The notes under the pieces: model-generated
Database searches by the model: none
The model's input: the letters and a program-made list of their open reading frames with translations, nothing else
Told to the model about the DNA's origin: nothing
In this document: positions 26,870-53,305 of the stretch, one piece after another
Numbering within the stretch: the first letter of the stretch is position 1
Layout: each line of letters begins with the position of its first letter
IMG/VR virus record: IMGVR_UViG_3300033075_000545
Coordinates: 1 to 64,000 of that record
DNA from: a virus
Taxonomy: Duplodnaviria; Caudoviricetes
DNA length: 64,000 nucleotides
Direction: 5' to 3' (one strand)
Position numbers and translations under genes: made by a program

Positions 26870-28948
26870 ATGGCGAATGAAATCCTTACGATCCCCCAAC
26901 GGGCGACGTTTAATTCCTTATTGAACTACTACACCGCTAAGGAACCCCTCACCGTCGCAGCGATTGATGCGGGCTACAACCAGACGAATACGCCCGATGC
27001 TGTGGTTCTTGAGGTTGCTGCGTTCCAAACGGACGCGGGTCTTAATGAAATTCCTCAAGCTACCGTCCGTCTTGGTGTCGGCCGTGACGCGCAGATGGTC
27101 GCAGCGGGTGCTCCGGACCTACTGTCCACGTCTGTTGTCCACCTTATTGAGAAAGTCTTCTCAACGTTTCGGCTCCCAGCCAAGTTGTTTGTGCGGGCCT
27201 TAACTACTGAAGAGGATGGGAATCTAGACGGCTTCGACAACGTTCCGTTCGACAACGAATGGGTCGTAATGTTCGAGGGTACCGTGACAGGCGTCAACCG
27301 ACGGGGTGGGGAAGGCGGGTCCTCGGTTAGTCTCCACCTGACACACTTTCTCAGCGCGTTGTCGGACTCGTCATCTGTTTCTGGACAGGTAACTGCAGGG
27401 CCGTTCAATCCTGCTGCAATGTCCCCGTTGCTCGTCCCGTTCCGCAACGCTAACGCGCTACCACCTGCGTTCACAGCGTTTGGTGGGGCGGCATTGGCCA
27501 TGGCAGGCGGACAGGCACTGGACACGGATTTTTGGGGTTACCAAGTTCCCGGTGGTGTTGGGAACACCCCACCCAATTTGGTGGGCATTAAAGGGTTTTT
27601 CAATCTCCTCGCGTCACAAGACACATTCGCATGGGAGAACCTCGCACGTGCGGACCTAGGGTCTTCTGCGTGCGTCGTGGGCCGACGTCGGAATGATTTA
27701 GCGCTATCAGCCCTTGCTAAGATCGAACCGATGTGGCCCTCGTGGACCTCACAAGAGGCAGCAACCGAGTGGTCCGCAGCCCTCACAACAATTAAGGGGA
27801 TTCGGACCCTTCAGTCGTCCGCTATTACCAGACAAAACATTAAGGCAATTGCCGGCGGGGCATACGACACAATCGGATACCGATATGGTATGCCGATCGC
27901 GTTCTATCTCTCAAATTCGGCTCTCGTGCCCCTCCCGAGTGGGCGGGCGTTTGCGATGGATATTGCTGGGGCGACGTTCGCAGATTTGGCTGGGAACACG
28001 TTTTGGGGACTCTTGTCCGGACAATACTCGTCGCGGTACCAGATTGCGATTGCTCCCATGGCTGACCGAGCAGTTGTGCTTCCTGTGCAGCCGATTCTGG
28101 ATAAGTACTGGCAATCAATTTCGGACAGTGAGATTATTGCGTGGGATGACGATTTCTCGAACCCTATTGCGATCCGGGGAATTATCCTCACCAGTGATCA
28201 CCCCTCAACTGCGGGTGTATACGCGTCGGGTAATGACGCATCTGGAGCTGGGGTGCAGGGTCAATATCAGATGATGTCGGCTGGGTTCGACAGTTGCGAT
28301 GCTGGAGCGTTTGAGGTGCGTACGTTACCACCATGGCTCATTAACCTGTGGCGTCCCGCAGAGGTTTACGCAGCAAAAACTGCTACTGTGCCGTTCCGAG
28401 CTCGTGCGGACGTACCGTGGACGACCGGGCTGAACGCCTTGGCAGCAGTTACTTCAGCGTTTGGAGGACCTTTAGCGTTCGCAAGCACCGGACTAAGTGC
28501 GAGTGCTCCGACGGCGCCGCCGGACTGGGCAATTTCTACGTCTGCACGGTTGGCGAAGGCTATGTACCAACAGGAGCGGACGCGGCACAACACGTTGTAT
28601 GTAACGTCAAGGTTCCGGTACGATATTGGACCAGGATCGCTTGTTAAGGTGGCTCTACCTGGGGATCGATACGTTCGTCAAACACTGTTGGGCGACGTAA
28701 ATACGGTTAACTACGGGATGGTTCTACGGGTGACGATCTCCGTCGATTGCGAGAGTCACGACTACCGGACACACTTGAGCGTAGGGTTCGCTCGCACAGA
28801 AGGACAGGCAGACCGAAACAGTAAATTGTTCGCAGACATCCACCCATTCTGGTCGACGGCATGTCTTGGTGTGCCGTGGGCTGACGCACAGTGGATTCGC
28901 GACACGTTGGGTAATAACTCCACAATCGCCCCGGACGCCAACGTATGA
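26870..28948 (+). CDS. Putative baseplate hub protein (gp27/GpD-like)
   Basis: MFEGTVTG and RFRYDIGPGSLVKV motifs; start re-assigned to ATG 26870. Confidence 0.5.
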   Translation: MANEILTIPQRATFNSLLNYYTAKEPLTVAAIDAGYNQTNTPDAVVLEVAAFQTDAGLNEIPQATVRLGVGRDAQMVAAGAPDLLSTSVVHLIEKVFSTFRLPAKLFVRALTTEEDGNLDGFDNVPFDNEWVVMFEGTVTGVNRRGGEGGSSVSLHLTHFLSALSDSSSVSGQVTAGPFNPAAMSPLLVPFRNANALPPAFTAFGGAALAMAGGQALDTDFWGYQVPGGVGNTPPNLVGIKGFFNLLASQDTFAWENLARADLGSSACVVGRRRNDLALSALAKIEPMWPSWTSQEAATEWSAALTTIKGIRTLQSSAITRQNIKAIAGGAYDTIGYRYGMPIAFYLSNSALVPLPSGRAFAMDIAGATFADLAGNTFWGLLSGQYSSRYQIAIAPMADRAVVLPVQPILDKYWQSISDSEIIAWDDDFSNPIAIRGIILTSDHPSTAGVYASGNDASGAGVQGQYQMMSAGFDSCDAGAFEVRTLPPWLINLWRPAEVYAAKTATVPFRARADVPWTTGLNALAAVTSAFGGPLAFASTGLSASAPTAPPDWAISTSARLAKAMYQQERTRHNTLYVTSRFRYDIGPGSLVKVALPGDRYVRQTLLGDVNTVNYGMVLRVTISVDCESHDYRTHLSVGFARTEGQADRNSKLFADIHPFWSTACLGVPWADAQWIRDTLGNNSTIAPDANV

Positions 28949-29802
28949 CGACAGTTCCAAAACTCCCGGAGCACAGCTCGCCGCCAGAAGGGATCCAAAT
29001 TCAGATCCCTCAGCAGCCTAAAGTTCACACTCCGGCAAAAGGTAGTACGGTGCCGACGCTATGGTCTGCGATCGGTCCGGACAAATCGAAACTTCTTATC
29101 GAACCCGAGTTCCATGCGGAATACGACGATTACGTAAAGTCCCGTACTCCAGAGTCCGCAGACAAGTTACTGAAGAAACTGTCCCCCGTTATTGACGAGT
29201 CGCTTCGATCGTACGGAGGATCCGAAGCGCAAACCGCTACGGCGCGGGCCCAAGCAAAAAAGTTGGCACTGGAAGCCGTACGGAGATATGACCCGGAGCG
29301 AGCTAAACTCAAAACGCACTTACTGTCGCACCTGCGGGGGATCCGCCGTCCAATCGAGCGGTCTTCCGCAGGCGTATATGTGCCAGAACAGTGGCGACTG
29401 GACGCACAACGTGCCCATGGCGTTATGGAGGACCTTCGGGAAGATTTGGGACGAGAACCATCGGAAGCTGAGCTTGCGACCAAATTAAACATTCCACTCG
29501 ACCGTATCCGTCGGGCACTTACCGTCCCGAATACGATGGCGTCGAGTCAGTTTGAGGGGTCCGTTGAGGGCTCAGGCGGGACTTCTCAAAAAGCTTGGGA
29601 TCAGTGGGTTGAAGGTATTTATCACGACTTGCACCCTGTCGACCAGGTAATATTGGAACATTCGTTCGGGTTGCATGGTAAGGAAATAACGCCTGCGAAC
29701 GTGTTGGCCAAATTGGTGAATTTGTCACCTGGTGCCATTAGCCAACGGAAGGCGCGAATTCAGCAAATGTTGGACGAGTTCGAATCTTTCATGGGACGGT
29801 AA
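28945..29802 (+). CDS. Sigma-70 family RNA polymerase sigma factor (FliA/WhiG-like)
   Basis: Region 2 LEAVRRYDPERAKLKTH; region 3 LGREPSEAELA; region 4 DQVILEHSFGL..LAKLVNLSPGAISQ. Confidence 0.8.
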   Translation: MTTVPKLPEHSSPPEGIQIQIPQQPKVHTPAKGSTVPTLWSAIGPDKSKLLIEPEFHAEYDDYVKSRTPESADKLLKKLSPVIDESLRSYGGSEAQTATARAQAKKLALEAVRRYDPERAKLKTHLLSHLRGIRRPIERSSAGVYVPEQWRLDAQRAHGVMEDLREDLGREPSEAELATKLNIPLDRIRRALTVPNTMASSQFEGSVEGSGGTSQKAWDQWVEGIYHDLHPVDQVILEHSFGLHGKEITPANVLAKLVNLSPGAISQRKARIQQMLDEFESFMGR

Positions 29803-29927: not shown

Positions 29928-30389
29928 ATGTTACCCGCACCGTTCGTCGCGCACATTCTGGGGATCATGCTCCAAGAATCCGCACAGGGATCGGCCGCGG
30001 CCATGCCGGGTGTAGTGCCGCGTACATGGCAGGTACCGCTTACGTTTCCCATTGGTACGGATATTCAGGATCCAGCCGGATTCATCACAGCGTGCGATCG
30101 AACAGAACTGAACTATGACTGCATTGAAGAATACCACGCAGGCACTGTAATTAACGGCGGTCGGATCGGTGTCGTGGGTGCGCTTAAGACCGCTATGGAT
30201 TACCAAGCGTGTTACGAGCGTGCTCTTCATGCTCGACACGCCTCTCCGGTCAGGTTGCGCGCATGGTCGTCCGCACGACGAACAGGGCATGGTGACAGTA
30301 CATTCGGCGTGTACGCTCAAATGATGGCTAGTCTCAACGCGTCGATTTCTGCGGCCCGCTCCGTCCCCAACATGCAGCCCAATGCCTAA
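29928..30389 (+). CDS. Hypothetical protein
   Basis: 153 aa ORF overlapping the wedge gene start. Confidence 0.5.
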   Translation: MLPAPFVAHILGIMLQESAQGSAAAMPGVVPRTWQVPLTFPIGTDIQDPAGFITACDRTELNYDCIEEYHAGTVINGGRIGVVGALKTAMDYQACYERALHARHASPVRLRAWSSARRTGHGDSTFGVYAQMMASLNASISAARSVPNMQPNA

Positions 30390-30798
30390 CACCGAGCTCC
30401 AACTGTTCAGCGGCTCCACGTACACACTTGATCTGAACTCATGGGCTCCAGACGGGGTTCGTGGGGCGGACAAAGTTGCGTCTCGTGTGGTTTACGCGCT
30501 CCTCACTCAACAAGGTTCGGTGCCCGGCCGTCCAACGGACGGATCTCCGTTTACCGACTTGGTGGCGCAATACCATAGCGAGTATGAAGTGTTCACCGCA
30601 TTCGCAGCGGCAGAAGCGGCTGTACTCGCAACGGTACGCGCTGCGGAATCCGCAGACGAAGCAGATTCCGAAAAAGTGGGTACTGTACGTCTAGCGTCCG
30701 TGGCGGTTAGTGGAACTGGGATTACGCTCACCTTGTCTGTAACCGCGAAGGACGGATCCTCCCCGTCTGCGGCCGTTGACTTCACTGTGGATCTGTAA
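30382..30798 (+). CDS. Baseplate wedge protein (gp25/GpW-like)
   Basis: KVASRVVYALLTQQGSVPGRPTDGS motif; precedes J-like gene. Confidence 0.65.
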   Translation: MPNTELQLFSGSTYTLDLNSWAPDGVRGADKVASRVVYALLTQQGSVPGRPTDGSPFTDLVAQYHSEYEVFTAFAAAEAAVLATVRAAESADEADSEKVGTVRLASVAVSGTGITLTLSVTAKDGSSPSAAVDFTVDL

Positions 30799-30800
30799 GC

Positions 30801-32414
30801 ATGGCAACTTTTGCAGAACTCGCCGGAGCAACCGACGCCGAGTTGGCTGAGGCTCGCACCGCAGTCTCAAACTACCTCGTGGCGAAGTTCCCTACGATTT
30901 CGGCCGTGAGCGGCCCAATCGCGGATCTCAACCTTGGCCCGTCTACGGACGCTCTTGCTGCAGTTGAGCATCGAGCCGCTCTTGTTGAATCGTCTTTAGA
31001 CCCAGCCGTTGGGTTGGCGTCGGGAAGTTACGATGCGGACGTCATGGCTGCGGCCCTCGCGGGATTGGGGGTAGTCCGGGGGGTCGCAGCCGTGGCAACA
31101 GGTACCGTTGCGTTGACGTTCACGACGTCAACACAACAAGCCGTAAATACCGGAGCTAGGTTTCACACAGCCGACGGTACTTACTACCGTACAACATCCG
31201 CCGTTCGATTCTTAAGTCCCGGTTCGACCGCGGTAAACGCTACAGACGTCGTGTTGGTTCAGGATCCGTCCAATCGATATGTTGGGGCTGTGCCTGTCAG
31301 TGCTGAAGATGCAGGAGCCGCAGGGAACCGAGTCGCAGGCGTTACACTGACTGTAGACACCACACTGTTGAATCTTTACTCTGCGGTTTTCGCTACAGAC
31401 GCTACAGGGGGTGCTGATGCAGAAACAGACGGAGAGCTCCTCGCACGACTCCCATCAGCGACCACTGCGCGCACTGCTGCCTCGTTTGCTGGTGCTGAAG
31501 GTACTGTGCGTAGTGCGTACGCGTTCTCAGATGTAAAGGTTATTGGGTACGGTCATGTGGGAATGTGTCGAGGACGTTCGGTACTGACAGGTCAAACACC
31601 CGGTCGTGTGGATGTTCGAGTACGTACCGCCACAGCTCCCACACGACAACGCGTGTCAGTAACGGCCACGTACATTGGGACGTATCTGGGGCAAACACAG
31701 TGGCGGTTCTCGTTAGCTATTGGAACGGCCCCAGGGTGGTTTGTGGTTGAGCGAGTTACGAAAGTCAACGCGAGCCTTACAACGGGTGGATACGCTCCGA
31801 CTGTTACACCTGGGTATGATCTTACTGGAGCAGATCCAGTACCCGACGTACGAAGTGTGCAGGACGCATTCCTATCTGAATATTGCACGGCGAGCGTAAC
31901 GTTTGTGGATCCTGATACGCCTGTTGGTAGTCTCGTGGTTAACGTATCCACCAAAGCGTACAACGCGTCCGTTCGTCAAATTCCAGGTATCGTAGCCGCA
32001 CAAACCGCTGTGGACGAGGACTCAGCACGGGCCGTCGGTGGTGATTGTTTAGTCCGCGGCGCGACGCCCGTGATGGTTGCGGTAACTGCTGTGGCCAGAG
32101 TACCTGCTTCAGTCACGTTAACTACCGCAGAACTCGCAAACGCCGTCGCCCGCGCGATAAACGAAACTTCCATTAATTCCACGCTGTACGGTTCTGTTGT
32201 CGGATCAAACGCGTTACTATATTTACCATCAGGCACAACACTACAGCTTTCGGGGTGGTCGGGAACCGTGTACAAGGGTAACGGGACAACCTCGTCGGTG
32301 TCAGGGACCTCGGATCTGGCGGTATCCACGGATTGGGTAAATGGTGTAGGTTCGGACGCTGTTGCGTTCTATTGTGACGATGCATCCGTTACTGCAACAG
32401 TAACAACCCTTTGA
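30801..32414 (+). CDS. Baseplate J-like protein
   Basis: ATGTVALTF, AEDAGAAGN, TGGADAETDGELLAR, GRVDVRV motifs. Confidence 0.75.
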   Translation: MATFAELAGATDAELAEARTAVSNYLVAKFPTISAVSGPIADLNLGPSTDALAAVEHRAALVESSLDPAVGLASGSYDADVMAAALAGLGVVRGVAAVATGTVALTFTTSTQQAVNTGARFHTADGTYYRTTSAVRFLSPGSTAVNATDVVLVQDPSNRYVGAVPVSAEDAGAAGNRVAGVTLTVDTTLLNLYSAVFATDATGGADAETDGELLARLPSATTARTAASFAGAEGTVRSAYAFSDVKVIGYGHVGMCRGRSVLTGQTPGRVDVRVRTATAPTRQRVSVTATYIGTYLGQTQWRFSLAIGTAPGWFVVERVTKVNASLTTGGYAPTVTPGYDLTGADPVPDVRSVQDAFLSEYCTASVTFVDPDTPVGSLVVNVSTKAYNASVRQIPGIVAAQTAVDEDSARAVGGDCLVRGATPVMVAVTAVARVPASVTLTTAELANAVARAINETSINSTLYGSVVGSNALLYLPSGTTLQLSGWSGTVYKGNGTTSSVSGTSDLAVSTDWVNGVGSDAVAFYCDDASVTATVTTL

Positions 32415-32427
32415 GAAAGGTAATTTC

Positions 32428-33237
32428 GTGGCTTTCAAAAATCTTGCACTGGCAGGGTGGCTGCTGTCCCTATCCACCCTGATTGGGTTTGCGAACGACG
32501 GACCTTTCGATCTTCCTGTAGCTCCGATCGTTACGCCGCCCGCTCCGAAGGTGTCCGAAGCTGTTGCCGGTGATCAACTCTGGGTCGTCAACGGTAAGAC
32601 AGATGCGGTTGTTCGAGACCACCCGAAAGGTCTCGTGAAGATTACCAAGGAAAATGGTCCGCTCCGTATCCGTGGGAAGTTTGCAGGTGGCACGCAGGTC
32701 GAGACCAAAACATTCCCTGGACCGTTCGTATTCATTGTGGAAGCTGTTCCGGGGGTGTCCGGAAAAGTCGACATCGACATCATTCCGCTCGGGTTCAAAG
32801 CTGAAACAGAAATTATCAGCCGGACCCTCAGCGTTAACAGTGGTACAGACCCTCCGCCGATAATCCCTCCGGTCACACCCACAGACCCACTCGTCGCCCT
32901 GTTTCAGACCGCTATTGACGGCGATCCCGATAGTGTTACAGCCAAGGATGGTACGGTTTATACGCGGTTGCAGTACGCGTCCAAGTTGGCCGCGCTGTAT
33001 GAGGGGGCTGCAAAGATTACCGTACCGACTGTGAAGACGTACGGAGAACTATTTGCAGATCTGAAGGCAGCGGCTGTGTTTCCTGAAACCACTATGCCGA
33101 AACTCAAGATCGCCGTAGGTACGTATCTTGACAGCAAGCTCGCCCCGACCACAAACAAAGCCATCGACAAAGCCGCGTGCGTCGCCGAGTTCAATAAGGT
33201 TGCTGCCACTCTCAAATCCTTGAAGGAGACAAAATAA
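32428..33237 (+). CDS. Exported protein with Pro-rich linker
   Basis: N-terminal signal peptide; DPPPIIPPVTPTDP linker; coupled (TAATG) to the protease gene. Confidence 0.6.
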   Translation: MAFKNLALAGWLLSLSTLIGFANDGPFDLPVAPIVTPPAPKVSEAVAGDQLWVVNGKTDAVVRDHPKGLVKITKENGPLRIRGKFAGGTQVETKTFPGPFVFIVEAVPGVSGKVDIDIIPLGFKAETEIISRTLSVNSGTDPPPIIPPVTPTDPLVALFQTAIDGDPDSVTAKDGTVYTRLQYASKLAALYEGAAKITVPTVKTYGELFADLKAAAVFPETTMPKLKIAVGTYLDSKLAPTTNKAIDKAACVAEFNKVAATLKSLKETK

Positions 33238-35462
33238 TGGCAGGTCCCACAGGCTTCATTGAGCCGGCAGATCGTACCCCCGCACAAGAGGCAGCGCACA
33301 ACGACGCCCTCTCGCGGATGGTGATGTTTTCGTTGCCGCCAGTTGTGACGGCCGGTCCGGTCAAGGTACTGTTGACTGACTTCCTGAAAGATCCAGATGT
33401 CGTTGCGGATATTGGCCGTGAGTTTGATGGCTTCCGGCAACTCACCGGGAGTTGCTTCCCTGCGGGAACGCCTGTTCGTATGGTCGACGGTACTGAGAAG
33501 TCTATTGAAAACGTTAAAGTCGATGATCGTGTGGTTACGCATGAAGGTCGTGCGCGGCGCGTAGTTGACACCATGCGGCGAGAATACACGGGTGAGATGG
33601 TTACGCTACATGTCAGCGGGTTCCCATTCCCAGTTGAGTCTACGGCAGACCATCAATTTGCCGTGTCGGTTGGCGGCGAAATTGAATGGAAGCCTGCAGG
33701 GGACATTCAGGAGGGCGACAAGGTTTTGATTGGTTGGAGCCAAACGTTTGCGTCTCCGAAGCCTTTGGACACTGCAGAGCTGCTTGGCGACGGCTGTATC
33801 ATTCTCGACGAACTAATGAAAGACGAGGCTTACACCAAGGGTAACGAACCCGATGTCCCGAACAGTAACATTAGTTCGGCACGTTATATGGTCAAACGGA
33901 GCGGGATTGATTGGCGTGGTCGCGTCCGATTACATAAGTCCCGGGTCGAGAATTCGATTTTTCGTAACGTCCCTATCTGTCCGTCATTCGGACGTTTGCT
34001 TGGCTTGTACCTGGCCGAAGGAGGGTGTCACGAAGGTCGTGTGACCTTTACGTTCCATATGAAAGAACGCGATACCCTGGCTGCGGAAGTATTGGCGCTT
34101 GTTCGTGGATTGTTCGGTGTTGAAGGTGAGCTTGAAATTCAGGAAGCGCATCCAAATCGTTGCGGAGTACGGTTTTCGAACCAAAATCTTGCAACAGTGC
34201 TGAAAGAGCTTGTTCCGGGTAACATCTATACAAAACGCGTCCCGGCCATCATTTTCGGAGCACCAGAGGAAGTACGTTTAGCTGTACTCCTCGGGTGGAT
34301 GGCTGGCGATGGTTACGTAGGCGTTAAAGGTGGAAGGCAACCAGGCAATATTCGGCTAACTGGCGTCTCTGTGTGTGCGGATCTCGCACGCGACATGACT
34401 ACATTAGCACTGTCTTGCGGCCTACGTGCTACGGCCGGACTTCGCAAAGCAAGAGGCGCGTCAAAGGTGTCTTATAGCGTTGATCTGGCAGGCAAAAAAG
34501 CTGTCAGCTTATTCCCTGCCGTCGCGCATCGAGCAACGGGTCCGACGTTTCGTGACAACGATGTGCTTCGAACAGCGAATGGGTACGCACGTAAGGTTCG
34601 AAAGATTACTTACCGAACCGTGGAGCACGTCTCTGTGTACGACTTTGAGGTGGAAGAAGATCACTCTTTCATCGCAGGCGGTCTAGTTGTACATAACTGT
34701 GTTGGCGCTGCGACAGGTAACGCATTGACCGTGCTCAGCGCCGTGCAGCGGAAGATCGCAGACAACCCCACCCAAGCCTTCGTAAATTTTTGGCCGTACG
34801 CATACGGACGTACGCGGTTTAATCAGGGCGACCGTAACCCTGGCGAGGGTGCAGTATCGTCGGTTATGGCAACAACGCTCGGTAACGACGGCGTTCTCGG
34901 TACCCACGAGCCGGGACTCCCAACGTTTACCCATGACGACGGTTACACGCTGACCAAGGCCATTGAAATGCAATGGTCCGATGGCGATTCCCCTACCGTT
35001 ACTCGGTGGTTGGACGCAGGACGGAAGCATACCGTTGGTAGTCGCGGACCCGTCTACACGGCGGAAGACGTGAAAACGGCTATCCTCAATGGTTACCCAG
35101 TACTCAACGGATGTGCGTATTTCGTCGACAACGGCAGCATTCGCGGAAGCGGCGATTCTGCCTATGTCCGCGGACGGTACGACTCGCGGGGTGGTCACGA
35201 AACAGGGTGGTTCGGGTATTGGGATCACCCGGATGACGGGCCGCTGTACCTGTATTGGAACCAATGGACGGCGTCGACGTACGGTAAGGATCCGGCTGGC
35301 GGTCCTCGATGTTCCGTGTGGGTGCCCGAATCCGAAGTTACTCGGATGATGAAAGCTGGATTTGGTGGAATCGTCCGTGGCGAAGCCTTTGCGATTTCGA
35401 ATCTCTCATGGTTTCCGGCACAGGCTGACAAAATCTTGAGCTTCACACAAGTGGGTGCGTAA
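33237..35462 (+). CDS. Papain-like (C1-type) cysteine protease containing an intein
   Basis: Spliced extein of 326 aa: RQLTGS|CVG catalytic Cys, GGHE His, YWNQW Asn. Confidence 0.8.
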   Translation: MAGPTGFIEPADRTPAQEAAHNDALSRMVMFSLPPVVTAGPVKVLLTDFLKDPDVVADIGREFDGFRQLTGSCFPAGTPVRMVDGTEKSIENVKVDDRVVTHEGRARRVVDTMRREYTGEMVTLHVSGFPFPVESTADHQFAVSVGGEIEWKPAGDIQEGDKVLIGWSQTFASPKPLDTAELLGDGCIILDELMKDEAYTKGNEPDVPNSNISSARYMVKRSGIDWRGRVRLHKSRVENSIFRNVPICPSFGRLLGLYLAEGGCHEGRVTFTFHMKERDTLAAEVLALVRGLFGVEGELEIQEAHPNRCGVRFSNQNLATVLKELVPGNIYTKRVPAIIFGAPEEVRLAVLLGWMAGDGYVGVKGGRQPGNIRLTGVSVCADLARDMTTLALSCGLRATAGLRKARGASKVSYSVDLAGKKAVSLFPAVAHRATGPTFRDNDVLRTANGYARKVRKITYRTVEHVSVYDFEVEEDHSFIAGGLVVHNCVGAATGNALTVLSAVQRKIADNPTQAFVNFWPYAYGRTRFNQGDRNPGEGAVSSVMATTLGNDGVLGTHEPGLPTFTHDDGYTLTKAIEMQWSDGDSPTVTRWLDAGRKHTVGSRGPVYTAEDVKTAILNGYPVLNGCAYFVDNGSIRGSGDSAYVRGRYDSRGGHETGWFGYWDHPDDGPLYLYWNQWTASTYGKDPAGGPRCSVWVPESEVTRMMKAGFGGIVRGEAFAISNLSWFPAQADKILSFTQVGA
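33453..34697 (+). mobile_element. Intein with LAGLIDADG homing endonuclease (415 aa)
   Basis: Starts CFPAGT; block B STADH; LLGLYLAEG and LLGWMAGDG; ends VYDFEV..VVHN|C. Confidence 0.9.
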
Positions 35463-36007
35463 TGCGTTCCCTGCTCCTATTATTCCTGTTGTCGTCACCC
35501 GCGTTGGCCTCCGACGCGGACGACGCTGAAGCCGCATTGCGATTAGCCGCGGCGCGGCGTGCAACACCATCGCCTAAGATTTCTCCTCCACCGAAGGAAG
35601 TCGAGTCCAAGCCATACAGCTACAAGGAGACAACGCGTCGAGTGCTCCTGGGACAGCGAGTGTCACTTGCTGTAGGTGTACCTGATCTGGATGCAGACGG
35701 TTACGTTGGCAGTCTGCCCGGCATTGCTCCGGGAGTTTACGATTGCTTTCTTAACGGCGAGTCGCCGATGATGACGCTTCGACCCGCTAAAGTGTTACCA
35801 ACTTCGAAAGTTGAGGTACCCCAGTCCCCAAAAGTCGAACTCCCGGTCACCACGAAGGGCACAGTTGTCCACGGTGTGGACACACTTCTGCGCCGGGGAC
35901 CGGGACTTGGATCGTTCGCGGTTACGCCCCAAATGGGGAACACTACCATGAATGTCCCGTGGACGGGACACGGTGGTCACATTGACAACTGTCCCCCAAG
36001 TGGGTGA
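35462..36007 (+). CDS. Exported protein
   Basis: Signal peptide MRSLLLLFLLSSPALA; coupled to the protease stop. Confidence 0.6.
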   Translation: MRSLLLLFLLSSPALASDADDAEAALRLAAARRATPSPKISPPPKEVESKPYSYKETTRRVLLGQRVSLAVGVPDLDADGYVGSLPGIAPGVYDCFLNGESPMMTLRPAKVLPTSKVEVPQSPKVELPVTTKGTVVHGVDTLLRRGPGLGSFAVTPQMGNTTMNVPWTGHGGHIDNCPPSG

Positions 36008-36070
36008 CGTATAAAGTAGTGGCCCGGTCGGGCCGCTCGGTTCGGTTAGCTAACTCCTTGGAGAGATTTG

Positions 36071-36409
36071 ATGCGTTACACGATTTCCGCCGCGGCTCTA
36101 CTGATTGTCACCAACGTCTCGTTTGGGCAATGTGCAAACGGGCGGTGTCAACTCCCGATGCGGACGGTAACAAAATCCTCAACGTCCTCGTGGCAGTTGT
36201 TGACGCCCGCACCGCAAACGGTTCCAGCACCCAAGACTGTGACCATCCCGAAAGCGACCGTTACGGTTCCTATGCCAATGCCTGGGCCCACCACGGTAAC
36301 CCGGGTACAGACTACAACGGTCAAGAAGACTGTGATCGTGAAGGAAGCCCCGCGTCTGGGCTTTGTTGATCGCCTCAAGGCCCGCGTCCAACTGTGGGCC
36401 AGTCGATAA
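36071..36409 (+). CDS. Exported Thr/Val/Pro-rich small protein
   Basis: Signal peptide followed by QCANGRC; GGAG RBS. Confidence 0.55.
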   Translation: MRYTISAAALLIVTNVSFGQCANGRCQLPMRTVTKSSTSSWQLLTPAPQTVPAPKTVTIPKATVTVPMPMPGPTTVTRVQTTTVKKTVIVKEAPRLGFVDRLKARVQLWASR

Positions 36410-36439
36410 CTACCTACTCCATCCTTGAAAGGTTGTGCT

Positions 36440-36817
36440 ATGAATCTCAAGTCCACACTCTTGGCTGTCATCGATCTGGTGTCGAACACCGCGGGTCCTG
36501 CGGCTAAGGCCGTCTTGGTGTTGGCTCGATGGGCCGTGACTTGGTTTGTGCCGGACAACGCATCGGTCGGCGATAGTACGCTGATGAACGCCGCTCCTGA
36601 GACTGCGAAGGAGATCGTTGAGAAGATCTTCGATCTCGCTGCGTCTTACGTCTCCAGCGACTTCCTCAAGTCGACGCTGACCACGGCGAAGAACCTGATC
36701 CTCAACTACGCTCTCGACTACGTGTGGGATAACATCTTCTCCCCGACCCCGGTTGCCAACGTGATTCCCGGTGAGGTGAAGATCACCGACGACCACGTTG
36801 CCGAGATCTGCAAGTAA
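36440..36817 (+). CDS. Amphipathic small protein (possibly membrane-associated)
   Basis: AAGG RBS; strongly biased codons; helical sequence. Confidence 0.55.
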   Translation: MNLKSTLLAVIDLVSNTAGPAAKAVLVLARWAVTWFVPDNASVGDSTLMNAAPETAKEIVEKIFDLAASYVSSDFLKSTLTTAKNLILNYALDYVWDNIFSPTPVANVIPGEVKITDDHVAEICK

Positions 36818-36820
36818 ACC

Positions 36821-37966
36821 ATGCCAAGCGCGTCCGACGTCTGTGGTAGTTTCTGGGGAACCGCGATCCTATCGGAGTTCGCGGACGCGTACGTATCAGC
36901 TAGTCGGGCATGCTTGGAGCACGCTACCAAGTATTCGCCCGGCTTCATTCGTGGTTGGACACTTCTCAGTACGGACCTGACGCTTGGGAGCGCCAATGGG
37001 CGTCCGACGTATGGGTATCCGCTTCCCCTCAACATCCCAACGATTGTCGCAGCCGATTTAGTTGGTGGTCGCGTTTTGATCCGGGATATCGATTTTTCCA
37101 TATCCAACAACACCATCTGGTTTAATGACGACCCTCTACTGTCGTGGGCCACAGTGAAGCGGTTCCAGTGGGTCTCTGGATCCCCAGTGTCTGCTGCGGA
37201 TCTCATCTACGTTGCAACAGATGACGCTGTTGAACCAAATACAGAATCCACGTACGAATCACTCATCAATGCAATCGTTACGTCCTGCGACTCCCCCGCA
37301 TCTGTTGGAGGCGAAACCGTAACGGATGTCTGGGCTGACGCTGATGGTACGTACCGTGTTATTACGGACAAGAGCGCGTATCTTCTGCCGTCCAGCGATA
37401 CTCCGTCGGTAGCCGTTGGTGCGGCGCTGAAAAAAGGTCAGCCTATTGGTTCCGCATGGATCCTAACGAAGCTTGGACCAGCCCTTCCTGATCTGAGTTA
37501 TCTAACCGTGCCAGCGGACTACCACCAGGGTGTAACGTCAGGCGGAGTGACGTGGTACAACGGCACGCGCAACCTCGTTGTGGATACAGTATCCTCTCGC
37601 ACTCGCGTTCGGTGGCCTTTAGGGGCTTCTGGCGGGGACTTCACGGCGTTCTGGACGGAGTCACACACAACGGGGATTGCGGGTTCTGTGAAGTCACTGG
37701 CGCAGGCTATGGACGTTCGAGCAAATCCTGTTGGCGATCCAGACGCAACAAGCCTTCCCACGACGGTAAACCCGCTACAGTTTGTTTGTCAGGAACTGTT
37801 CCAGGGCAACGCGTACTTGCTGATCGTCAATTCCGCCAAACTAGGTCCGAAGGCTACGTCTACTGCCGACCGTCAAGCTGCAACGGCCAAGGCAGTGGGG
37901 CCGTATGCAACCGTATTCGATTACACAGACACCATGCCATCAATCCCCGAGATCACGCCCACCTGA
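36821..37966 (+). CDS. Putative baseplate/tail protein
   Basis: 381 aa Thr/Gly/Val-rich; YRVITDK..Y..P..VAVG motif. Confidence 0.5.
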   Translation: MPSASDVCGSFWGTAILSEFADAYVSASRACLEHATKYSPGFIRGWTLLSTDLTLGSANGRPTYGYPLPLNIPTIVAADLVGGRVLIRDIDFSISNNTIWFNDDPLLSWATVKRFQWVSGSPVSAADLIYVATDDAVEPNTESTYESLINAIVTSCDSPASVGGETVTDVWADADGTYRVITDKSAYLLPSSDTPSVAVGAALKKGQPIGSAWILTKLGPALPDLSYLTVPADYHQGVTSGGVTWYNGTRNLVVDTVSSRTRVRWPLGASGGDFTAFWTESHTTGIAGSVKSLAQAMDVRANPVGDPDATSLPTTVNPLQFVCQELFQGNAYLLIVNSAKLGPKATSTADRQAATAKAVGPYATVFDYTDTMPSIPEITPT

Positions 37967-53016: not shown

Positions 53017-53305
53017 AAAAATCTCCTTCAAATGTCTGTCAAAATTACATGTACGGATTCGCTTGTGTTCCGTCCCCACCCGGATTAGGGTGGTTGTTCC
53101 ATACGAACTAGGGAGCTGCGAGGGTGAAATCAGCAACACCTGATGAAATCAGGTCGGCAATACTTCTATCGTTTGTGGGTTGCTTCATGGTTTATTGGGA
53201 GACTAAAGCCGCGGGCGTAATGCTAGCGCCGCTGCTTATGTTAGCGCTCTACTTGTCGATCCCTCCGTCTAACGAATAACACGAACTTACTATAAGGGTC
53301 CAACA

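Follow-up and report, generated by a model that had tools for sequence, protein, structure and literature searches.

Phage lysis is commonly taught as the joint work of a holin and a muralytic endolysin, to which a spanin is added in diderm hosts. The genes for these proteins form holin-endolysin-spanin cassettes such as S-R-Rz/Rz1 of lambda and Y-K-lysABC of P2, the latter lying between head and tail genes. Within this study a cassette of five genes (g1, a papain-fold cysteine protease gene, g3, g4 and g5) was analyzed, which is located in the first 64 kb (64,000 nucleotides, here called the window) of the 129,973-bp linear IMG/VR virus record IMGVR_UViG_3300033075_000545. Like the lambda and P2 cassettes it is a compact, translationally coupled late block, in which a signal-less enzyme is flanked by small membrane or exported proteins, and like them it varies in position, being found directly before the terminase genes in one related phage (locus L026) and inside a structural operon, as in P2. 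Unlike them, it contains an enzyme of no known muralytic family, has no detectable holin or spanin family and includes an obligate, predicted exported protein, g1 (about 200-340 amino acids, aa), which has no counterpart in the canonical cassettes. Judging from the sequences and structural models, there is an even chance that this cassette is a late envelope-opening (lysis) module, conserved and mobile, with a latent protease of the papain fold (xylellain-type, clan CA) as its enzyme and not a known muralytic endolysin.

With regard to the enzyme, the closest described proteins are xylellain and short bacterial C1A peptidases (PDB 3OIS; MEROPS C1), with which it shares the fold, the Gln-Cys-His-Asn-Trp order and an N-terminal segment in the position of the pro-region. 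It differs from the xylellain group in being a phage family without a sequence-level match to PF00112 or to any PDB chain. According to a passage in PMC10380794, xylellain-type C1A peptidases have been acquired by tailed phages. The function of these phage copies has not been described previously, and full-text literature searches yielded no paper whose title or abstract describes the cassette or gives its function. A precedent for a Cys-His peptidase as the wall-opening enzyme of a phage is given by the cysteine-peptidase endolysins (CHAP, NlpC/P60, PeiW and PeiP), of which PeiW and PeiP are treated in a passage of PMC10318531 (its reference 100) as clan CA pseudomurein endoisopeptidases of methanogen phages. 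The wall-cutting cysteine peptidases belong to the NlpC/P60-CHAP branch (PMC10318531). CHAP, NlpC/P60 and Pei enzymes, all from the NlpC/P60-CHAP-transglutaminase branch, usually carry wall-binding domains, whereas the protease studied here belongs to the classical papain (C1) branch and is a one-domain protein that the CHAP and NlpC/P60 models fail to match. The baculovirus V-cathepsin, which acts alongside a chitinase, may serve as an analogy only, as it is a papain-family proenzyme that is kept latent with a partner, released at cell death and then breaks down host barriers. It belongs, however, to a eukaryotic virus system, which makes use of retention in the endoplasmic reticulum, and is unrelated in sequence.

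The five genes are tightly packed on the + strand directly after a Baseplate J-like gene, where the initial annotation had placed them and where the open reading frame (ORF) list confirms them. The features of the region are as follows:

30382-30798: baseplate-wedge-like gene (weak phrog_43 match, E 0.0028)
30801-32414, + strand: Baseplate J-like gene, upstream boundary (PF04865 Baseplate_J, E 1.8e-16; L036 homologue at the same position, 48% identity)
32428-33237, + strand: g1, 269 aa, predicted exported two-domain partner (ORF; N-terminal hydrophobic signal-like segment)
33237-35462, + strand: precursor of the papain-fold cysteine protease, 741 aa, with one intein (ORF; TAATG overlaps with g1 and g3)
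33237-33452, + strand: N-extein, 72 aa, with a pro-segment-like conserved N-terminus and the oxyanion Gln in FRQLTGS
33453-34697, + strand: intein, 415 aa, with a LAGLIDADG homing endonuclease
34698-35462, + strand: C-extein, 254 aa, with the catalytic Cys (+1 residue), His, Asn and Trp and a conserved Cys pair
35462-36007, + strand: g3, 181 aa, predicted exported partner (ORF; start MRSLLLLFLLSSPALA followed by SD)
36021-36034, no strand assigned: GC-rich hairpin (GGCCCG-loop-CGGGCC) in the 60-nt gap between g3 and g4
36071-36409 (start at 36068 or 36071), + strand: g4, about 112 aa, small, predicted exported Pro-rich protein with a CxNGxC motif (ORF)
36425-36817, + strand: g5, 130 aa, small amphipathic protein with a weakly hydrophobic N-terminus (ORF)
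36821-37966, + strand: 381-aa gene, downstream boundary (L036 homologue at the same position, 44% identity)

Both the g1/protease and the protease/g3 junction read TAATG, in line with the coupling already noted for the first three genes. Signal peptides were assigned from hydropathy and by eye. A scan of 30-39 kb gave zero promoter-like sites, and terminator-like sites were not above chance; the cassette is therefore read as part of a late operon. The hairpin at 36021-36034 has a perfect GC-rich stem without a T-run on the + strand, and it may serve differential expression or mark RNA stability within the cassette.

The protease belongs to a large family. For its C-extein, 108 intein-free homologues of about 320-330 aa were found (E down to 7e-107), and a profile built from 40 homologues retrieved 579 cluster representatives (50% identity) at E<=1e-3. 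The N-extein is 71% identical to the N-terminus of the intein-free protease in L005. Across the 40 aligned sequences Q71, C76, H243, N264 and W266, which is the papain set in papain order, are invariant, and the window protein holds all catalytic residues (QLTGS followed by C, GGHE and NQW). For the closest homologue free of an intein (P0001), which shares 66% identity with the C-extein, AlphaFold gave a model with a predicted local distance difference test (pLDDT) score of 93.7. This model matches xylellain (3ois) with a Z of 21.6 (233 residues, root-mean-square deviation 2.7 A), and over 300 C1 chains score Z>=8 against it. A Foldseek search with the homologue model reached E 7e-10, and matches in BFVD were viral Peptidase_C1 proteins as well as a few phage proteins whose names refer to muramidase or to the binding of peptidoglycan. 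At the level of sequence profiles the exteins gave no Pfam or PHROG match, with PF00112 being blank at E<=10; PF00112 was likewise blank in all 19 protease-carrying records at E<=1, and the family profile matched no PDB chain at E<=10. Going by alignment and model, the protease thus shares the fold and mechanism of C1 peptidases, yet lies outside the membership as defined by Pfam. The papain-like protease of the initial annotation is accordingly borne out by fold and catalytic residues, not by Pfam.

The model also bears on how the activity of the enzyme might be controlled. In proenzymes the alignment begins at model residue 1, which is paired with the final portion of the propeptide, and in mature enzymes it begins at about residue 26-40. 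When procathepsins are superposed, the ends of their propeptides fall on model residues 1 to about 30; the model is confident at its N-terminus (high pLDDT), and conserved positions of the alignment (G7, R14, Q18 and A21) lie in this part. This suggests that the conserved N-terminus probably occupies the position of a propeptide, which would imply latency, i.e., the protease is probably zymogen-like through its N-terminal segment. C215 and C281, which are kept in at least 90% of the aligned homologues, flank His and Asn like a papain disulfide, a hint that the enzyme may work in an oxidising environment. A signal peptide was found in no family member, the N-terminally extended subfamily included, which agrees with the previous remark that the protease lacks an obvious one and would need release or a partner. 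The extended members had been considered as an exported subfamily; their roughly 30 extra N-terminal residues are hydrophilic and this idea was dropped. Domain fusions which might have hinted at a substrate were also sought, and all longer homologues (13 of 13, >=574 aa) turned out to be intein carriers; homologues of 446-573 aa were covered by the representative search only. The protease is a single domain of about 325 aa, without a tail-attachment domain.

The neighbor of the protease on the upstream side is g1. This protein consists of a signal-like N-terminus, a Pro linker, an Ig-like sandwich, a further Pro linker and a conserved helical bundle; the AlphaFold 2 model (pLDDT 86.1) places the sandwich at residues 44-137 and the helices at 154-263. 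A hidden Markov model of g1 placed a member of its family immediately before the protease gene in at least 23 of 29 loci; the stop codon of the g1 gene often overlaps the start codon of the protease gene. In L008 and L016, g1 has a cytoplasmic coil and a membrane anchor in place of the Ig domain, and the conserved element of g1 therefore appears to be the periplasmic helical domain. The true end of g1 in L008 (FTRIAALLEQLP and stop) overlaps the start of the protease as ATGA. An apparent g1-protease fusion at this locus (553-aa frame, L008:5281-6939, contig of a metagenome-assembled genome, MAG) was dismissed as an artefact of a 1-nt frame change, probably an assembly indel. A role of g1 as an inhibitor of the chagasin/ICP type was considered as well. 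Such inhibitors combine an Ig-like fold with conserved NPTTG, GxGG and RPW loops; these loop motifs are absent from g1, and the match to chain 3m86 (Z 6.1) is level with matches to unrelated Ig domains, so that this candidate was rejected. A protein-atlas search for g1 gave no usable match.

The genomic position of the g1-protease pair differs among phages:

L005: pair after a capsid-like gene
L006: pair with small genes of early type on one side and a regulatory block on the other
L007: pair next to an integrase gene
L037: pair as a + strand island among - strand genes of a 170-kb phage
L026: pair directly upstream of the small and large terminase genes (gpA)
L036: pair behind Baseplate_J, the arrangement of the window (close relative)

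The position before the terminase corresponds to the slot of the lambda lysis genes. In the window the cassette sits in a late structural operon, and L036 keeps the same gene order of Baseplate_J, cassette and 381-aa gene. Small proteins with 1-2 transmembrane segments adjoin the pair in L011, L013, L014, L018, L020, L025 and L037, and small Pro-rich proteins with a lipobox are found near it in L006 and L013. Thus, g1 and the protease are a near-obligate pair at differing genome positions in unrelated phages, and the cassette is a conserved, mobile, self-contained and envelope-directed module.

These data also bear on the possibility that the protease is a cytoplasmic processing enzyme, acting in virion morphogenesis or in the cleavage of host proteins, whose exported neighbors are unrelated or loosely linked to it. 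Such a role would fit with no family member having a signal peptide or a transmembrane segment, even in the extended forms, and with the gene often being located inside structural late operons (window, L005, L012, L024 and L027). It nevertheless appears unlikely, as unrelated phages keep g1 and the protease together with overlapping stop and start codons at various positions (the same 23 or more of 29 loci), as in L006, L007 and L037 the pair does not lie among structural genes, and as the conserved Cys pair would rather suit an extracytoplasmic enzyme.

An envelope-opening function of the cassette is further suggested by what these phages lack. The initial annotation had recognized no canonical muramidase, amidase or spanin gene, and this was confirmed by Pfam, PHROG and six-frame searches alike. 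Pfam families of these three kinds were absent among the ORFs of at least 70 aa of the 130-kb contig, the PHROG scan of the cassette and of 36.8-130 kb gave no true muramidase, amidase or spanin, and no endolysin or holin family was recognized in the 130-kb contig. The six-frame family searches comprised 19 protease-carrying records, eight of which are at least 90% complete and five of which have terminal repeats. Phage_lysozyme, Amidase_2, Amidase_3, SLT, GH25, M15_4, M23, NlpC/P60, CHAP and PG_binding_1 were over the cut-off in none of the 19 records. GH19 was also blank in all 19, though no control genome gave a GH19 signal. In five records nothing over the cut-off was obtained for GH108 (a search without a working control), VanY and Rz (PF03245, Rz-type spanin). 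The small transmembrane neighbors of the pair in related phages matched no known holin family. One PHROG match named endolysin (phrog_938, E 1.6e-23, G000 94665-95156) was discarded, as it is an InPase domain (PF18823) and not a lysin; phrog_938, whose profile is 2185 positions long, is presumably a polyvalent-protein family. A 185-aa stand-alone InPase (PF18823) is encoded at G000 94668-95225 (L002:10668-11225) beside an 894-aa gene.

Several exported proteins around a protease could also belong to a module which remodels the envelope without lysis, either by destroying or masking receptors (superinfection exclusion) or by changing the surface of a lysogen. The L007 module lies beside an integrase gene and G016 is a provirus, both being typical places for conversion genes. 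This explanation is regarded as clearly unlikely. It leaves the lack of a recognizable endolysin in the 19 records unexplained, large phages that appear to be lytic carry the module, which also occurs within late structural operons, and the protease is not exported, so that the surface of an intact cell would be out of its reach. Of the lysis or envelope-remodelling module proposed initially, the self-contained and envelope-directed character stands, given the near-obligate pair, its varied positions and the missing endolysins, while lysis itself can be inferred only.

The initial annotation had further described the cassette as an interruption of the baseplate module. This holds for the upstream side, where Baseplate_J is found and the order is kept in L036; on the downstream side, the 381-aa gene (36821-37966) matched nothing in Pfam, PHROG or PDB searches and has no recognizable function. 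The placement between Baseplate_J and this conserved 381-aa gene in the window and L036 would be expected if the protease were a virion-associated baseplate enzyme that digests a proteinaceous surface layer at entry. Such a function is held to be very improbable, since exported proteins, as predicted for the partner genes, are unexpected for virion parts, since the pair lies far from tail genes in L006, L007, L026 and L037, and since the protease is a lone domain with nothing to attach it to a tail, the longer forms found all being intein carriers.

The intein of the protease precursor lies directly at the active site. It matches PF14890 (3.1e-11), PF05203 (1.7e-8) and PF14528 (3.3e-6), and Cys1 (CFPAGT), a TADH block B and a terminal VVHN followed by Cys+1 could be read from the sequence. 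With its Hint splicing blocks and two LAGLIDADG motifs it is a class 1 intein. The insertion point is between Ser75 and the catalytic Cys76, which doubles as the +1 nucleophile. As the intein splits the oxyanion Gln-x-x-G-S motif from the catalytic Cys, the unspliced precursor cannot be active. At least nine other alleles have an intein at this position, and the family has a second site directly after the catalytic His243 (for both sites, proteins P0119-P0130). Of the 150 best cluster representatives, about 30% by a rough count have one or two inteins, and some representatives of about 1090 aa appear to hold two. Inteins usually invade conserved, indispensable genes, and their presence at two active-site positions fits with a conserved gene that the phage cannot do without; they are silent on what the protease does. 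With an intein at the catalytic Cys, the activity of the protease would be strictly dependent on splicing, which would be a rare case of splicing-gated activation in a late function of a phage. In L037 a 144-aa ORF (L037:7520-7954) that by eye resembles a Hint domain stands on its own immediately before a protease gene with an intein.

The three remaining genes of the cassette encode small proteins. g3 is composed of a signal-like N-terminus, a helix (DADDAEAALRLAAA), a small core domain and a C-terminal NCPPSG. The C-terminal CPPSG also occurs in L005, an N-terminal motif is common to L005 and L014, and the core domain is homologous to L020 2043-2396. In several loci g3-like, predicted exported proteins follow the protease, with an acidic and then Ala-rich helix past the signal. 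Some of these relatives carry a CxxC motif, the L007 counterpart having CLAC and a sub-threshold match to Thioredoxin_2 (E 0.0028). The window copy lacks both CxxC and a Pfam match, and the idea of g3 as a thioredoxin-fold partner was rejected. g4 starts with a signal-like N-terminus, followed by QCANGRC and a Pro-rich stretch, and has no lipobox; small, predicted exported CxNGxC proteins adjoin the protease in L030, L027 and L036 as well. For g5, the PHROG scan gave a weak match to phrog_2572 alone (E 0.017), and a membrane-active component is possible. Two phages that are otherwise unlike each other encode a further small, conserved Cys-rich protein (its start including HYRNGREAKNGD) close to the protease pair (L005:9560-9826 and L023:6707-6955).

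Taken as a lysis module, the cassette might work as follows. The precursor would be made in the cytoplasm without a signal peptide and would be inactive until the intein splices. The spliced protease would still be zymogen-like, owing to the conserved segment at its N-terminus, where the propeptides of procathepsins lie. g1, g3 and g4 would be exported to the periplasm ahead of the protease, which would follow once the inner membrane is breached by a putative holin. There it would meet its partners and cleave an envelope substrate, either the stem peptides of peptidoglycan or structural envelope proteins. Extended to the whole family, this would be a widespread, undescribed egress route, in which a latent C1-fold protease and an obligate exported g1 replace the muralytic endolysin and, once the membrane is breached, cut peptide cross-links or proteins of the envelope, with additional gating by splicing at the active site in about a third of the best-matching lineages. 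This broader proposal is made tentatively, as a serious prospect somewhat short of even.

Several observations weigh against a lysis module. Searches of the window and of the contig detected neither a holin nor a spanin family, and the hydropathy of g5 reveals no clear transmembrane segment. The partners are structurally uninformative: the fold search with g1 gave generic matches only (Z at most 6.7) and no informative family match, and g3 has no Pfam match, no meaningful PDB sequence match and no informative fold or family. The CheckV completeness of the 129,973-bp record is 65%, so that an endolysin could lie in the missing third, and the PHROG scan was confined to the cassette region and 36.8-130 kb. 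Moreover, PF00112 misses the protease in all 19 records, and divergent endolysins could thus be missed by Pfam likewise. Finally, the cassette is stably embedded beside baseplate genes in the lineage of the window and L036, which would also fit with a role in the virion or at entry.

A planctomycete-like host with an atypical, protein-rich envelope, to which the module had initially been thought to be suited, could not be substantiated. It rests on a single g1 homologue labelled Gemmata. Three protease-carrying MAGs are labelled proteobacterium, Micrococcales and Bacteroidetes, and DUF1559 is absent from all three (a search without a positive control). In addition, planctomycetes are now known to have peptidoglycan, which weakens the premise of a protein-rich envelope. 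The protease family was found only in phages and metagenomes, and a tblastn search against 50,697 GenBank phage records gave no match, i.e., no cultured phage among them carries it. If the proposed lysis function is correct, a family of 579 protein clusters, so far only seen in uncultured phages, uses a papain-fold protease and an exported partner in place of a muralytic endolysin. For lysis biology this would be a new enzyme class and a new kind of envelope-degrading enzyme, and it would account for part of the phage genomes in which annotation finds no endolysin.

Nearly all genes of the record are on the + strand, and it encodes a gpA-type terminase, a ribonucleotide reductase, a family A DNA polymerase, RNA polymerase subunits and many inteins. 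A Sigma-70 region 3 gene (E 2.9e-8) is found at 28945-29802 of the window, inside the run of tail and baseplate genes. At 53124-53279, just upstream of the ribonucleotide reductase gene, lies a 51-aa ORF with two hydrophobic segments, possibly encoding a small membrane protein. Two adjacent apparent paralogues of about 180-190 aa (G000 98017-98556 and 98636-99208) have an N-terminal membrane anchor and the common motif WNA-DKK...F-W...FPL.

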